NCBI GenBank assembly: GCA_963790025.1
Contig: CAWBMP010000004.1
Span: forward strand, 928,001-992,000
Origin: Nitrospirota bacterium
Lineage (GTDB): Bacteria > Nitrospirota > Thermodesulfovibrionia > Thermodesulfovibrionales > Dissulfurispiraceae
Length of the DNA stretch: 64,000 bases
Direction: 5' to 3'
Of this stretch, positions 15,001-21,000 are shown in pieces; position 1 is the stretch's first letter, and every line of letters starts with the position of its first letter. The position numbers were made by a program.

Positions 15001-18000
15001 GACCTTCCCCAAAGGCGATCTGCTTCTTGATATACCGAAAGAGTCAAAACTTGTCATCGGAGACAAGATTGCGCTTGCCAAAACAAAAAACCTTGCCTCA
15101 TATCTTGAGTCTTATGGAGTTGTCATCAATCTTCCCATTAAAAGAATCCACCTTCAACTGCCGCCGCCGACAATCAGCGATAACATAAGCGATCTTGAGC
15201 GTTTGAAGAGGGCACTCCATGAAAGAGGCCTAAGGGACATGCGTTTCTCTCACGGGTTCGTATCCACAATGGGCACTATTCTGAGAGATGCGAAGTGGAT
15301 TGTTGACCTTATCTATGTGCCTGGAGACGCAATGAGCAGCGAAGCCATTTATCTGGCTTCTCCGGGATATTGCAGCAGGCGATACGGCCTTGCCATAGAC
15401 ATCGGCACCACAACTGTTGTGGTATATCTAGTAAATCTATTAGATGGATCAATCGTGGACATCGGTTCCACCTATAACTCCCAGATACGTTTCGGAGATG
15501 ATGTCATAACAAGGATAGTCCATGCAACTGAAGGCGGGGGACTCAATGAGCTCAGAAATGCCGTAGTCGCGGATATCAACACAATCACCTCCTCGTTCAT
15601 CGAGCGCCATGATATTCACTCTTGCGAAATAGATTCCGCGACTGTCGCGGGTAATACAACAATGTCACATATCTTCTGGGGAATGAATCCGGGCTCTATC
15701 AGGGAAGAACCTTACATTCCCACGCTCAACTTCTTCCCCCTCTGGAAGGGCGGCTCCGCGAAACTATGCATTAATGCGCAAGCGCCGGTTTATACTGTCC
15801 CGTCCATAGCCAGTTATGTCGGAGGCGATATTGTTGCAGGGGTGCTTGCCTCAAAAATGCACCGCCATACCGAAATTGCCCTTTTTATGGACATAGGCAC
15901 CAACGGCGAAATCGTTGTCGGCAACAATGAGTGGCTTATGACAGCCGCCTGCTCTGCAGGGCCCTGTTTCGAGGGCAGCGGGATACGCTGCGGAATGCGC
16001 GCCACATCAGGGGCAATCGAGGCGATCAAAATCGACAAAGAAACTTTCAAACCTGAAATATCTGTCATAGGCGGCGGCACGCCGATGGGGATATGCGGAT
16101 CGGGAATGATCGATGCAGTATCTGAAATGTTCCTTACTGGAATTCTCGACCTGAAGGGCAAGTTTATTTCAGACAAAACAGACAGGGTCCGGAACGGCGA
16201 GGAAGGCCTGGAATACGTGTTCTTCTCCGGTAGTGCTCACCGCAGGGACATTGTACTTACGGAGGCCGATATCGAAAACCTGCTCCGGGCCAAGGCCGCA
16301 ATCTATGCCGGAGTTACGACGCTCCTCGGCGAAGTCGGCCTGACCATTGATTCAATTGAACGGATATATATAGCGGGAGGTTTCGGCAATTACATCAATG
16401 TCGAGAGGGCGATCACACTGGGCATGCTCCCCGATGCGCCCTTGGAGCGGTTTATATTTATGGGCAACACTTCCATCACCGGTGCATACCTCTGCCTGCT
16501 TTCAGAAGAATTAAGAAACGAGGCGGAAAAAATAGCTTCGCAAATGACTTACGTCGAACTGTCCGTTTCCCACAGCTTTATGGACCAGTATATGTCCGCA
16601 CTTTTCCTGCCTCACACAGATATCAACCAGTTTCCCACAGTTGCAGCGATGTTGCATAAATAGGATTATGGGCTTTTTGCATGCCATAAAGCGGGATTTT
16701 GATGTTGTTTTCGAGCGCGATCCTGCCGCAAGGAATTATGTCGAGGTACTGTTGACCTATCCCGGACTCCATGCCATTTTCATGCACCGCATAAGCCATG
16801 CCCTTTGGGACCTGCGAATCCCCGTGTTGCCGAGGTTCCTTTCCCATGTAGCACGCTTACTGACCGGGATCGAAATCCATCCTGCGGCAAGCATAGGGAC
16901 CGGTTTCTTTATCGATCACGGCATGGGAGTCGTTGTCGGGGAGACCACCGATATAGGAAATGATTGCCTCTTGTACCAAGGTGTGACACTTGGAGGCACA
17001 GGGAAAGAAAAGGGGAAACGCCACCCCACATTGGGAAATAATGTAGTAGTAGGCGCGGGCGCAAAGATACTCGGCCCGATACTCATAGGCGATTATGTTA
17101 AAATAGGCGCTAATTCCGTTGTCTTGAAACCTGTCCCTGATTATTCCATTGTAGTGGGTGTGCCGGGCAGAATCATAAAAAAAGAAGTGGTGCGGATGGC
17201 TGCGGAAGGGCCTGTTGAGGCCCTCGATCATGTGAGACTTCCGGACCCTGTTGATGAAACACTGCATGAGTTCGCCGAACATCTTGCAAGAATTGAAGCG
17301 AGGATCGATAAAATGGAAGGTAAAAAAGCGGGCATGAAACTATTTAATACTATGACAGGAAAAAAAGAAGCTTTTATTCCTATCGAGAGGGACAAAGTGG
17401 CCATCTATGCCTGCGGGGTTACCGTGTACGACTATTCACATATAGGCCATGCCCGGAGTGCCGTGGTTTTTGACGTCATCAGACGGTATTTCAAATACAA
17501 GGGCCTTGCAGTCAAATACGTCAGGAACTTTACCGATATCGACGATAAAATAATTAATAGGGCACATCAGGACGGTATTGCGTGGGACGAGGTAGCGCGA
17601 AAGTATATAGCCGAATATTATGCGGATATGGACAGGCTCGGCGTTGCACGGGCCGATGTGGAGCCGAAAGCAACCGACCATATACAGGAAATGATCGGGG
17701 TGATAAAAGGGCTTATTGATAAAGGGCACGCCTATGTCTCGGAGGGAAGCGTGTATTTTGGCGTCGATACATTCTCGGACTACGGCAAACTCTCGAAGAA
17801 AGAGCAAAAAGACCTCCTTGCAGGCGCGCGCGTCAATATAGAAGAAAAGAAGAGGAACCCGTCCGATTTTGCACTCTGGAAGGCCTCAAAGGAAGGCGAG
17901 CCGTGGTGGGAGAGTCCCTGGGGCAAGGGAAGGCCGGGATGGCATATTGAATGCACGGCGATGGTAATCCGGCATCTCGGTGAATCCATCGACATTCACG

Positions 18001-21000
18001 GTGGCGGAGCTGATCTTATCTTCCCCCACCATGAGAATGAGATCGCCCAGTCCGAGGCGTTTACCGGTAAGCCCTTTGCAAAATATTGGGTGCATAACGG
18101 TTTCATTACTATCGATAAAGAAAAAATGTCAAAATCCCTGGGGAACTTCTTCACCATCCGTGAAATCCTCGATAAGTACGATCCCGAGGTCATCAGGCTC
18201 TTCCTGCTCTCAAGCCATTATCGCAGCCCCATCGAGTTTTCCAACGAACAGTTGCACGATGCGGAATCTTCTTTGGACAGGTATTACAGCACCGTTGCAC
18301 GGATCGAGGAATTTTTAACAGGCGTCGGGACAACTTCTTCGAAGACACCTAAGAATGCGAACACAGTGTCAGATGAACTTACCGCTGTGCTCGCTTCATT
18401 TCAGGGGCGCTTCGAAGAAGCAATGGATGACGATGTTAACACTGCACTCGCCACCGGGCATGTTTTTGAGCTTGTCAGAATAATCAATAAATACCTCGAT
18501 GCAAAACCCTCCGGTGAGTATGCCTATAAAATGATCGGGCAGGCTCTGGATGCCCTGCACATGGCAGGCAGCGTCCTTAATCTCTTTCAAAGGACGCCGG
18601 CAAAGTGGAACGTCGGTCTGTTGGCTACCAGGAAGATTCCCCTTACCGAGGTCGAGATAGAACAGAAGATAGAGCACCGGCAGAAAGCGAGACAGAACAA
18701 AGATTGGGCGCTGGCCGATTCAATCAGGAAAGAACTTGAGGACAAGGGTATACTGCTTGAAGACAGAAAAGACGGGAGCGGGTGGAAGGTGAAGATAGTT
18801 TAGCTGTTGCTCCATCATTATGTGTTGGCGGATTACGGGCTTGAGCTGACTCACTCCATCAAAGAGGGAAACAACGGGTCTTTTTTCAGGAGATCATGAA
18901 ATTCTTGGGTGCTTAAAGGCTTGCTGAAGTAATAGCCTTGTACCTCATCGCACTTGTTTGAGCACAGGAACTCGAACTGTTTCAGCGTTTCGACGCCTTC
19001 GGCCACGACTTTGTAGTTGAGTCCATGAGCTAATGCTATTATTGTTTCTACAACTTTGCAATTGTCGGGTCTTTCCAGGCCTGAGATGAAAGATTGATCT
19101 ATCTTGAGTTCGTCTACGGAGAATTGGTTCAGGTAATTCAGGGATGAGTAACCGGTTCCGAAATCATCTATGGAAATGCCTACGCCGGCATCTCTTAGAT
19201 TATTCAGCATAATTATGGTGCCAGGAATGTCCTCGATAAGAGTGGATTCGGTTACCTCCAGCATCAAACAACTGGGATCAAGGTGGGTTTCAGCGAGAAT
19301 ATCCTTAACGACCTGCAAGAAATCGTGATTACGGAACTGCCTGACCGACAGGTTAACCGAGAATCTGCAAAGGTCTGAGTCCCCTGTCCTGCCATTCCTT
19401 ATTCTGTCGGCAGGCCTCTTTCAGGACCCATTCTCCAAGTTGAATGATCAGTCCTGTCTCCTCGGCAAGCGGGATGAAAAGAGCCGGTCTAACCTGGCCC
19501 TGATCGGGATGATACCAGCGTAACAGTGTCTCAATTCCGGCAATACGTCTCGTCTTTATGTCTATCTTTGGCTGGTAATTCAGATGAAACTCCAGTTTGT
19601 CGAGGGCTTTTCTGAACCGCGTTTCAAGAACAAAGCGTTCTACGGTGCTTTTGTTTATATCTTCAGTAAAAAACTTGAAATTATTTTTACCCTGGGCCTT
19701 GGCGTGGTACATGGCGGTGTCGGCATTCTTCAATAAAACGTCCGGGTCATTGCCATCATCGGGGAACATAGTAATGCCGATACTTGCCGAGATATGAAGC
19801 TCGTGACCTGACAGTGAGAACGGATTGGCAAGCAGAGAGTTGAATTTATAGGCTAAATGGGCGGCGCTGTTGGCACTACCTACATCGGGCAGTATAACTA
19901 AGAATTCATCGCCACCCAACCGGGCCACAGTATCGCTTTTGCGAACCACCGATAAAAGCCTCGCGGATGTTTCAACTAGAAGCTGGTCGCCTACGTGATG
20001 GCCGAGCGTGTCATTGATATCTTTGAAGCGGTCAAGGTCAATGAGCATAACGGCTATCAAGTGGCGATACCGAATTCCCAATGCAACTGCCTGTCTCAGT
20101 CGGTCAAACATTAGAGAACGATTCGGAAGTTTTGTGAGCATGTCAAAATGAGCCATGTGCTGCAGCGTCTTTTCGGCATCTTTAAATTTTGTGATATCCC
20201 GAAAAGTTGCAGCATATCCTTTTATTTTGCCGTTTTTATCTTTAAACGCCTCGATTGCAAACCAGGCCACAAAGAATTTATTGCCTTTCTTGCGACACAT
20301 GACCTCACCCTGCCAGATTCCGTCTTTGTTTATGGCATTCCTAATTTTTTCTATTTCGCTTTCCCCCTCTGCATCCAGGAGAAGATCGAACAAGCCAAAT
20401 TTCAGCGTCTCCTTCTTTGAATATCCGGTAAGATTTGAAAATATTTTGTTGAGGGCGGTTATACGCCAAGCGGCGTCCATGCCGGTATAGGCTATTCCGG
20501 CCAACTGAATTGCCCGAAATTCATTTTTGTGGCGGGTTGCTAATTGCTTGAACGCATCAAGTCGGAGCTGCAATTTCAAAAGAAGATTCAGGAGTTCCGA
20601 TTTATTAAGTTTTTTGTATCTGTTGTTAACAGCATCTTTCATAGATTGCCTATATTAACATGTTTGATTAAGCCAACATAACAGTTAAATGATCAGCACA
20701 GTTAAATGATCAGCGAAGGAACTATTCCCTTGAAGAAGACTGGGCCAGGCATCTCCGGAGCCACTTATAATTCCCGCAATAACTGTAACATTAATATTTC
20801 TTCATCAAAATGGAGTAATATAAATTATGAGGTCAGGTGTTGCTTTTATAGTTTTGTTGGGGCTTGCAATAGTGACTGCTATGCTGGTCATTCTTGGAGG
20901 AGGTAAAAATATGTCTATGCGACATAATTATACTGAAGCAGGCATTGGTCTGCCACCATCAGACCGTCTTATTTCAGGCAAATCCGAAACAGCTACCTTT

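Follow-up and report, generated by a model that had tools for sequence, protein, structure and literature searches.

The window, the whole 64,000-nucleotide stretch analysed from a Nitrospirota contig, contains no N and carries an uninterrupted open reading frame whose predicted product of 711 amino acids comprises a serine O-acetyltransferase (SAT) and a cysteine--tRNA ligase (CysRS) (Table 1). Its start codon, an ATG at 16668, lies 4 nt past the stop codon of a gene encoding a RACo/AcsV-type corrinoid reductive activator, with which, given this gap, it probably forms one operon; this neighbour is also present in family-level relatives and in a genome encoding only the CysRS part (G033). The rlmB gene lies about 5.1 kb from the cysS part, with other genes between them; in L029, L022, L035, L036, L037, L053, L058 and others, RlmB is encoded directly after CysRS.

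Table 1 Features of the locus (positions in the window; residues refer to the fused product)
Feature	Position	Strand	Basis
RACo/AcsV-type corrinoid reductive activator gene	14771..16663	+	Pfam RACo_C_ter, Raco_middle, Fer2; NF040756 678.7 bits, below the cut-off of 800
cysE::cysS fused gene	16668..18803	+	711 codons plus TGA stop, uninterrupted
SAT domain, truncated isoform, residues 1-175	16668..17192	+	TIGR01172, H. influenzae SAT match, conserved residues
Native SAT C-terminal tail (tether), residues 176-222	17193..17333	+	Homology to free SAT tails, AF2
LDHVRLPDP segment, low confidence	17223-17249	+	Within the tail
Amphipathic helix, residues 194-216	17247-17315	+	AF2; EGKKAG next
Putative relic cysS translation start	17315..17336	+	GGAAGG 17315-17320, 13-nt spacer, ATG 17334-17336 (Met223)
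Cysteine--tRNA ligase, residues 223-711	17334..18800	+	TIGR00435, PDB 8qhp/1li5, invariant motifs
rlmB, 23S rRNA Gm2251 methyltransferase	23925..24671	+	TIGR00186, 219.7 bits (cut-off 160.15)

Two enzymes in one reading frame

The genome-wide survey's note had described both enzymes as joined in one polypeptide, and each half indeed scored above the cut-off of its NCBIfam model within the one open frame. The SAT half matched TIGR01172 (cysE) with 244.4 bits (cut-off 210.65) over residues 7-168 and model positions 1-162 of 162, and the fused gene reached 248.5 bits when the reading frames of the genome were searched with this model; the EpsC model NF041874 was likewise passed, with 239.4 bits against a cut-off of 150. 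The Pfam family Hexapep (PF00132) was detected at residues 119-153 and SATase_N at residues 5-37, the latter with 21.0 bits, at its 21-bit cut-off. In the AF2 model, four N-terminal helices are followed by a left-handed β-helix (pLDDT about 88-96). SAT chains of the PDB (1sst, 1t3d and others) align to residues 9-174, and residues 79-244 of the H. influenzae SAT align without gaps. Long SAT chains match from residue ~79-100 of their own sequence, which assigns the SAT half to the N-terminally truncated isoforms. PMC13040420 describes these as having undergone a discrete loss of four N-terminal helices and as having an elongated C-terminal helix; both are seen here, with long-SAT matches starting at residues 79-106 and a C-terminal helix at residues 194-216. 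What the survey's note called a complete SAT is thus better described as a truncated isoform, from which ~75-80 N-terminal residues of the long form are missing.

Twenty-nine fusions were aligned, which share the N-terminus MGF(W/L/F)..I..D and a mutual identity of 59-85%. Residues D18, D83, H84, R118 and H119 of the SAT half are invariant among them, and mapping via the PDB matches makes these the equivalents of E. coli D92, D157, H158, R192 and H193; position 69, equivalent to E. coli D143, is E in 27 fusions and D in 2. We take D143, D157, R192 and H193 to belong to the serine-site and catalytic residues of the E. coli enzyme. H158 and D92 are counted among these residues in PMC13040420. 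The conserved residues suggest that the SAT half keeps its ordinary chemistry, converting serine and acetyl-CoA to O-acetylserine.

The CysRS half consists of a Rossmann catalytic domain, a DALR_2 domain and the anticodon-binding CysS_C end. It matched TIGR00435 (cysS) with 574.4 bits (cut-off 340) over residues 223-707 and model positions 1-464 of 466, and the Pfam families tRNA-synt_1e (PF01406; residues 237-533, E 2.8e-137), DALR_2 (residues 581-641) and CysS_C (residues 669-704). PDB chains of CysRS match from residue 218/223 (8qhp, E 4e-139; 1li5, E 2.5e-134), and the AF2 pLDDT is mostly 93-98. None of the 29 fusions departs from the HIGH (H258-I-G260-H261) and KMSKS (K486-M-S-K-S490) motifs or from the four Zn-site positions C249, C429, H454 and E458, which correspond to C28, C209, H234 and E238 of E. 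coli CysRS. With all the checked catalytic residues invariant or conservatively kept in the 29 fused homologues, both halves look intact. The genome has one tRNA-Cys(GCA) gene, and no further CysRS above the cut-off and no SepRS were found in it, although, as the survey's note had pointed out, a second CysRS-like gene (412 aa) exists, as does a second SAT-like gene (313 aa). The conserved residues suggest that the CysRS half, as the sole canonical CysRS encoded in the genome, charges tRNA-Cys.

The SAT tail and a predicted trimer

Residues 176-222 align residue for residue with the C-terminal tails that free truncated SATs (207-226 aa) of other lineages carry. All 12 rows of this alignment share H188, P192, D193 and P194, with the helix next, and the same tail is present on the separate SAT (215-221 aa) of a genus with split genes (g19). 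What the survey's note had called a ~45-residue linker is therefore a conserved segment, as claimed, but one that the fusion did not bring, being homologous to free SAT tails. Among the 29 fusions, tether length differs by at most 12 residues.

In PMC13040420, the terminal Ile of SAT is described as critical for the cysteine synthase complex, in which it enters the CysK active site, and SaCysE and MtbCysE carry this residue. Terminal Ile was found in 0 of 9 free-standing SAT relatives in the tail alignment and in 0 of 3 split-gene SATs, and the second SAT of this genome ends in ...LIFK. It is correct that the fused SAT cannot plug CysK, but the terminal Ile is missing from the free SATs as well, so the loss of the complex cannot be put down to the fusion.

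The AF2 monomer has a pLDDT of 90 and a pTM of 0.71, with a weak segment at residues 166-193 (pLDDT <50 at residues 166-177 and 182-193), which indirectly suggests that the two halves may not pack against each other. A three-copy model of residues 1-222 gave an ipSAE of 0.89 (best control 0.00), where the mark was calibrated on two copies, not three: 20 of 30 proteins with structures solved as pairs attained it, as did 1 of 23 with structures solved as single chains. The runs had at least 83% of contacts in common, with a partner pLDDT of at least 83. Heptad positions 199, 202/203, 206, 209/210, 213 and 216/217 lie inside the modelled interface, including L199, F202, L206, I209, I213 and M216 with their 3-4-3-4-3 spacing. 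The model suggests that the tail helices form a three-helix coil on the threefold axis, after which a connector of ~6 residues leads to CysRS in this protein. Because SAT trimers are solved structures, the model's pass may stem from likeness to them, while the coil part is model-based. Truncated CysE isoforms are probably trimeric, and the elongated tail helix coils in models, according to PMC13040420. Given a SAT β-helix that forms trimers and tail helices that the model winds into a coil, the particle is likely (SAT-CysRS)3, in which a short stalk would carry three CysRS modules that make no fixed contact with SAT. If the stalk is real, CysRS would be held in threes, with possible effects on charging or SAT regulation.

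Distribution and origin of the fusion

Of the 135 genomes sampled from the class, 99 gave a junction-spanning match in a single frame (32 of 35 in the own family, 50 of 83 in the rest of the order and 17 of 17 in the other orders), which bears out the conservation within the lineage that the survey's note had proposed. Among 266 genomes of other classes in the phylum there was no such match, and none scored beyond the level of the CysRS half; in 5 of 5 other-class genomes inspected, SAT and CysRS were separate matches. The earlier homologue search, whose 120 best matches carried both domains, was reproduced with residues 120-330: all of the best 120 matches contained PF00132 and PF01406 (identity 64-100%), 118 of them being 698-800 aa long and the other two 630 and 517 aa. 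Taxa named among these 120 were Nitrospirae/Nitrospirota, Thermodesulfovibrionales, Thermodesulfovibrio sp., Nitrospiraceae and Dissulfurispira thermophila, together with one MAG labelled Alphaproteobacteria. Only one of the best 150 cluster representatives from 1.84 billion proteins was fused.

As the survey's note had observed, public names omit the SAT half: named matches are called cysteine--tRNA ligase, cysteinyl-tRNA synthetase or hypothetical protein, and none of the best 120 junction-search matches is called bifunctional. The second SAT type was found in no more than 8 of 41 related genomes, which leaves most relatives with the fused SAT as their sole candidate; here, because the second SAT-like gene is present, it need not be the sole or main source of O-acetylserine. 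The public name therefore hides the only good SAT of most such genomes from pathway reconstructions, and metabolic models of Thermodesulfovibrionia-type bacteria would wrongly rate cysteine synthesis as incomplete.

Separate genes overlap in relatives: the end of cysE and the start of cysS share 1 nt in a genome of another class (G042), behind ispD-ispF, and 4 nt in genus g19 (cysE 1772-2437, cysS 2434-3885). CysRS-only relatives exist (61-64% identity), and whole genera have CysRS without the SAT half. In the CysRS-domain tree, split and CysRS-only forms nest within the fused clade, and the starred branches force at least three changes; this is a quick tree with SH-aLRT support only, its outgroup is not cleanly one-sided and the fused row L040 falls with the outgroup. 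As far as this quick tree goes, the direction of change would be one fusion followed by reversals, with at least three apparent separations or losses of the SAT half. In an ancestor of the class, the cysE stop codon was probably lost at an overlapping stop/start junction, whereby the SAT's own C-terminal tail became the tether. Having been reversed, or stripped of its SAT half, on several occasions, the fusion is probably near-neutral. With precursor, fused state, reversal and several domain losses among close relatives, it offers a clean natural experiment on gene fusion.

Role of the fused protein and comparison with known systems

We consider it probable that the gene is a natural fusion of formerly adjacent, translationally coupled cysE and cysS, this being the best explanation as a whole, including the trimer and a role in co-expression. 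In the main, joining the genes would force the enzymes of cysteine supply and cysteine use to be expressed together; the fusion would be unable to channel a metabolite, since the intermediate enzyme, O-acetylserine sulfhydrylase, is encoded elsewhere, by three CysK/M paralogues that score above the cut-off and all lie at other loci. As separate cysE and cysS overlap by 1-4 nt, a one-base sequencing or assembly error could join them, but such an artefact is ruled out by the recurrence of the same in-frame junction in 99 genomes, each assembled independently, and in every one of the 120 best protein clusters, and the apparent frameshift-type exceptions G005 and G018 run the opposite way, splitting the gene; its probability is negligible. 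Production 1:1 as one protein, as the survey's note had proposed, is likely but not certain, since 20 of the 29 fusions keep the old cysS start as ATG (18), GTG (1) or TTG (1), in many cases preceded by an AAGGAGG-like site, so that free CysRS could also be made; 4 of the other 9 have ATG one codon upstream. It is possible, though we think it unlikely, that a free 489-aa CysRS from Met223 does most of the charging and the fusion is a minor or regulatory product. AAGGAGG-like sites 5-8 nt upstream in several fusions (for example L028, L029, L031, L057 and L059) fit this reading, and a kept start would explain how one frameshift could have restored two working genes in genus g19. However, a start codon is missing from this place in 5 of 29 fusions (CTG, ATA, CTT, CTG, CTG), the 13-nt spacing in this window is long, and the purine-rich codons encode the conserved EGK(G/R/K), so that conservation of the protein may account for them.

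It is very improbable that the SAT half has left the cysteine pathway, serving as a trimerisation scaffold or using another acceptor like EpsC, with the second SAT-like gene making O-acetylserine. The EpsC score, the presence of that second gene and the loss of the SAT half in whole genera that keep CysRS would agree with this, but the half also exceeds the higher cut-off of TIGR01172, its serine-site and catalytic positions are all conserved in the 29 fusions, the second SAT type was found in only the 8 of 41 genomes, and free-standing orthologues (58-65% identity) are named serine O-acetyltransferase. Functional coupling, in which tRNA-Cys or cysteine at CysRS tunes SAT, or the trimer recruits O-acetylserine sulfhydrylase, appears quite unlikely: retention in 99 of 135 genomes at a divergence down to 59% identity and the short connector are compatible with it, no more, whereas confident SAT-CysRS packing is not seen, tether length varies, the fusion was repeatedly reversed or lost, and the free terminal Ile for the known mode of CysK docking is absent. 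We would likewise give only a small chance to the fusion being a working unit rather than a frozen operon. In such a unit, the trimeric SAT core would hold three CysRS modules on a coiled-coil stalk, and CysRS, when occupied by cysteine or uncharged tRNA-Cys, would exert feedback on the synthesis of O-acetylserine. In Firmicutes, cysE-cysS has a tRNA-Cys-sensing T-box leader, and such feedback, if true, would be a protein-level counterpart of this control. It would then also be, to our knowledge, the first case of a tRNA synthetase physically joined to the committed enzyme in the synthesis of its own amino acid.

Both enzymes are textbook, and their union in one chain appears undescribed. In agreement with the survey's note, no paper on a SAT-CysRS fusion was found in full-text literature searches, and the words fusion, fused, bifunctional and cysS are absent from a 2025 survey of CysE diversity.

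Compared with E. coli CysRS (1li5/1u0b), which works as a monomer, residues 223-708 match chain residues 2-460 and share HIGH, KMSKS, the Zn site, DALR_2 and CysS_C, but the fusion has an extra 222-residue N-terminal SAT module, so that its CysRS is expected to be held in threes. With the truncated CysE of S. aureus, M. tuberculosis and B. subtilis, as portrayed in PMC13040420, it shares the N-terminal loss, the catalytic β-helix, the elongated C-terminal helix and the predicted coiled trimer; in contrast to SaCysE and MtbCysE, its tail continues into CysRS and has no terminal Ile. The cysteine synthase complex, a SAT hexamer with CysK on the C-terminal Ile, begins with the same enzyme, and the genome also encodes CysK/M homologues, but neither the fusion nor its unfused relatives have the free C-terminal Ile that serves as docking element, and the hexamer-forming N-terminal helices are missing too. 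Relative to the Firmicutes operon, which has two polypeptides, the window has one, and between positions 10000 and 26000 no Rfam family reached its gathering score. The order cysE, cysS, rlmB is the same as in gltX-cysE-cysS-mrnC-yacO(rlmB)-yacP, and the upstream ispD-ispF of the sister class adds to the likeness (PMC5499597). The logic, too, is shared, in that cysteine supply and charging are co-expressed.

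The fused gene and its two enzymes

The genome-wide survey's note had reported a serine O-acetyltransferase (SAT, cysE) and a cysteine--tRNA ligase (CysRS, cysS) joined in one polypeptide, and our analysis agrees. The frame is open throughout, and both NCBIfam models are matched above their cut-offs, the cysE model over its whole length at residues 7-168 (244.4 bits against 210.65) and the cysS model at residues 223-707 (574.4 bits against 340). The fusion's ATG lies 4 nt downstream of the TAG that closes the upstream gene, which encodes an activator of the RACo/AcsV corrinoid type, and an MGF..I..D N-terminus is common to all 29 aligned fused homologues (59-85% identity).

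From residue 218-223 onward the protein aligns with CysRS chains of known structure. SAT chains of known structure align with residues 9-174, only from their own residue 79-106 on, so the SAT half is an N-terminally truncated isoform. For this half, the note's word complete is better replaced by truncated. It is the isoform, without the four hexamer-building N-terminal helices, that an excerpt of PMC13040420 describes.

SAT positions were numbered by an ungapped match to the H. influenzae enzyme, in which a residue of the fusion equals the H. influenzae residue minus 70 and the E. coli residue minus 74. In the CysRS half, H258-I-G-H261, K486-M-S-K-S490, C249, C429, H454 and E458 are invariant across the 29 fusions. 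We take the last four to be the Zn site C28, C209, H234 and E238 of E. coli CysRS, and likewise presume the roles of the SAT and CysRS catalytic positions beyond SAT H158 and D92. The roles of these two are given in the excerpt of PMC13040420.

Positions of the fused gene, its domains and SAT catalytic residues, its neighbours and related genes at other loci
Feature	Position	Strand	Remark
SAT-CysRS fusion	16668-18803	+	711 residues, window translation
SATase_N	residues 5-37		Pfam, marginal
Hexapep	residues 119-153		Pfam
tRNA-synt_1e	residues 237-533		Pfam, E 2.8e-137
DALR_2 and CysS_C	CysRS half		Pfam
E. coli SAT D92	D18		invariant in 29 fusions
E. coli SAT D143	E69		E in 27, D in 2 of 29 fusions
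E. coli SAT D157	D83		invariant in 29 fusions
E. coli SAT H158	H84		invariant in 29 fusions
E. coli SAT R192	R118		invariant in 29 fusions
E. coli SAT H193	H119		invariant in 29 fusions
PAS-GGDEF-EAL gene, split in two frames	18851-19318 and 19353-20642	-	downstream of the fusion, opposite strand
msrA (methionine sulfoxide reductase A)	20911-21621	+	Pfam 'selenoprotein MsrA helical domain'
LuxR-type response regulator and histidine kinase (two-component pair)	past msrA, within 18804-23924		
Second SAT-like protein, own genome	L002 1468-2409 (contig C4, about 1009700-1010640)	-	313 aa
CysRS paralogue, own genome	L007 1498-2736 (C4:905490-906728, outside the window)		412 aa
cysE of G042, a genome of another class	L061 2503-3690	-	

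Distribution and history of the fusion

The genome sample comprised 401 genomes of the phylum, 135 from the window's class and 266 from other classes. A single-frame match spanning the junction was present in 99 of the 135, which excludes assembly error as the source of the fusion. Full-length matches account for 96 of these, among them one with an internal TAG (G233); two stop short at contig ends (G217, G293), and the match in G351 covers residues 1-479. By group, a fused match occurs in 32 of the 35 genomes from the window's own family, in 50 of the order's 83 others and in all 17 that belong to other orders of the class. Without one are 36 class genomes: all 14 of genus g25, 12 of 13 in family f12, six of nine in family f4 (genera g19 and g45), and G034, G328, G380 and G289. 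A second match is present in seven of the 12 non-fused f12 genomes; G328 and G380, from the own family, have a CysRS-only gene followed by rlmB, and G289, of the same family, gave no match at all in the 401-genome sample. Among the 266 other-class genomes none surpassed E 1e-195, which a CysRS half reaches alone; seven of them, 63-87% complete, gave no match at threshold, and SAT and CysRS were separate matches in all five that were inspected.

Among the best 150 cluster representatives of a library of 1.84 billion proteins, only P0002 (711 aa, 82%) spans residues 1-710, and we infer that halves of moderate similarity, if fused independently, should have scored above the 150th match (412.7 bits). 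Ten long matches were considered as other fused forms (P0098, P0074, P0086, P0144, P0130, P0060, P0045, P0135, P0028 and P0029); a Hexapep domain occurs in none, and their extensions are of other or unassigned kinds, for example mTERF or M20 peptidase. P0135 (637 aa) and P0086 (1253 aa) show two unusual CysRS architectures: in one, an M20 peptidase domain comes after the CysRS catalytic domain, and in the other, probably eukaryotic, an mTERF domain stands ahead of CysRS. In a junction search with residues 120-330, both Pfam domains were present in all 120 best clusters, whose public names mention the ligase alone or read 'hypothetical protein'. Conservation of the fusion in its lineage and its public annotation as a plain cysteine--tRNA ligase, both stated in the note, are thereby confirmed.

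The two genes were found as separate neighbours in relatives. G042 has the order ispD-ispF-cysE-cysS, with the cysE stop and the cysS start overlapping by 1 nt, and in genus g19 cysE (221 aa, tail present) shares 4 nt with cysS. At a stop-start overlap of this sort, a small indel would fuse the frames. In many relatives rlmB stands directly after cysS. For co-transcription, PMC13040420 cites Gagnon et al. 1994. The free-standing cysE of G042, whose class is a sister class, carries a charged low-complexity extension of ~170 residues past the PDP-helix tail, rich in R, E, P and Q.

For the CysRS half, a maximum-likelihood tree built quickly from 45 rows, with 8 outgroup representatives and SH-aLRT as its sole measure of support, nests the split g19 forms within the fused f4 group and places CysRS-only forms as sisters to fused forms at three places; its starred branches require at least three changes of state. 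The root is imperfect, since one fused row groups with the outgroup. In the simplest history the genes would have fused once, at the base of the class, and separated again once, and the SAT half would have been deleted several times. G033 retains the neighbouring genes RACo and rlmB and lacks the SAT part alone: this locus (L035) and 13 other g25 genomes keep RACo-cysS-rlmB and have lost the SAT half, and the fusion as query found no SAT-like match above 26 bits in G033. Such repeated reversals question any putative selective benefit of the fusion.

In the window, rlmB is first met at 23925. The interval 18804-23924 (~5.1 kb), which holds the c-di-GMP gene, msrA, the LuxR-type response regulator and the histidine kinase, appears to have been inserted into the former operon, because cysS and rlmB are directly adjacent in several relatives. 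From 19420 at the latest, the EAL domain is read in the downstream piece's frame; the split of its gene points to a frameshift near 19320-19420, in a pseudogene or by sequence error. In msrA, an in-frame TGA (21010-21012) stands precisely where the catalytic Cys is expected (ALG-TGA-FWG), and a tRNA-SeC gene is present in the genome; the gene probably encodes a selenocysteine MsrA, its ORF being shortened by ordinary gene calling.

The SAT tail and the predicted particle

The segment between the halves had been described as a conserved ~45-residue linker. A search for short relatives of residues 1-230 yielded free-standing SATs of 207-226 aa (58-65% identity) from other Nitrospirota classes, Dictyoglomaceae and Bryobacterales. 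In their alignment with the fusion (A1), the free SATs extend to about residue 205-222, and H188, P192, D193 and P194 are invariant in all 12 rows, with an amphipathic helix next. By its sequence, then, the supposed linker is the SAT's own C-terminal tail.

Lost plugging of CysK as a consequence of the fusion, also proposed in the note, fares no better. SAT docks into CysK through its terminal Ile (PMC13040420, excerpt). This Ile is found in none of the nine complete free SATs in A1, in none of the three separate g19 SATs and not in the genome's second SAT-like protein. As SATs of unfused relatives already lack it, the classical cysteine synthase complex was probably given up in this lineage before, or independently of, the fusion.

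An AF2 monomer model, built from a 70-row alignment (mean pLDDT 90, pTM 0.71), shows two confidently predicted domains; between them, residues 166-193 form a weak segment and residues 194-216 a helix. Such a pTM is about what would be expected of two well-folded domains not fixed to each other. A fixed SAT-CysRS contact was considered and rejected, the monomer model having no confident packing between the halves; the tether length, which differs by up to 12 residues in the 29-row alignment, argues against a precise geometry. The modelled tail coil agrees with the excerpt of PMC13040420, which reports a coil of low confidence in models of S. aureus CysE.

Hydrophobic residues of the tail helix lie at 199, 202, 206, 209, 213 and 216, a 3-4-3-4-3 spacing. 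Three co-folded copies of residues 1-222 reached an ipSAE of 0.89 and the best of three controls 0.00, with at least 83% of contacts in agreement among runs and a partner pLDDT of at least 83; in calibration, 20 of 30 proteins with structures solved as pairs attained the mark for this score, as did one of 23 with single-chain structures. In the modelled interface lie faces of the beta-helix, the residue pair 69-84 across subunits and, from the tail helix of each of the three copies, precisely the heptad positions. Since SAT trimers are solved structures, the SAT part of the model may reflect structures already known to the predictor. The models suggest that the particle is likely (SAT-CysRS)3.

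Co-expression and the rest of the pathway

One message would give equimolar synthesis of SAT and CysRS, a guarantee that may be partial, because free CysRS could also arise from a retained internal cysS start. The old start position is ATG, GTG or TTG in 20 of the 29 fusions, four more have an ATG one codon upstream, and several have AAGGAGG-like sites 5-8 nt ahead; the window's fusion has GGAAGG 13 nt upstream. The remaining five have no start codon at this position, so that such a second product is possible but not general. Of the claimed 1:1 production, one message and one polypeptide stand, and strict equality may hold only in part. No T-box or other leader RNA was found at gathering scores in an Rfam scan of 10000-26000.

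The genome has one tRNA-Cys gene and no other CysRS above the cut-off; SepRS, an alternative route to Cys-tRNA, was rejected (best match 19.2 bits against a cut-off of 380.65). Three CysK/M matches exceed the cut-off, all at distant loci. The fusion skips this middle enzyme and thus cannot channel a metabolite.

A second SAT-like gene of EpsC type and a second CysRS-like gene, listed in the note, do exist. The SAT-like protein is extended by 130 residues at its N-terminus and carries an insertion within its beta-helix; it scores 165.9 bits, below the cysE cut-off, and 160.7 bits against EpsC, above the cut-off of 150, and its type was found in only eight of 41 related genomes. The CysRS paralogue scores 300.8 bits with TIGR00435, below the cut-off of 340, is without the anticodon-binding end and, compared by eye with the fused CysRS, has D and N at the Zn-ligand positions C209 and E238. 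Similar frames of 395-443 aa occur in about 20 of the 41 relatives. The paralogue is probably not a cysteine--tRNA ligase.

No paper on a SAT-CysRS fusion was found in the literature searched, the supplements of PMC13040420 (which may list sequence lengths) lying outside it; as far as these searches reach, the fusion is unpublished. Both enzymes are known ones; their arrangement in one chain is new, and its origin is simple.
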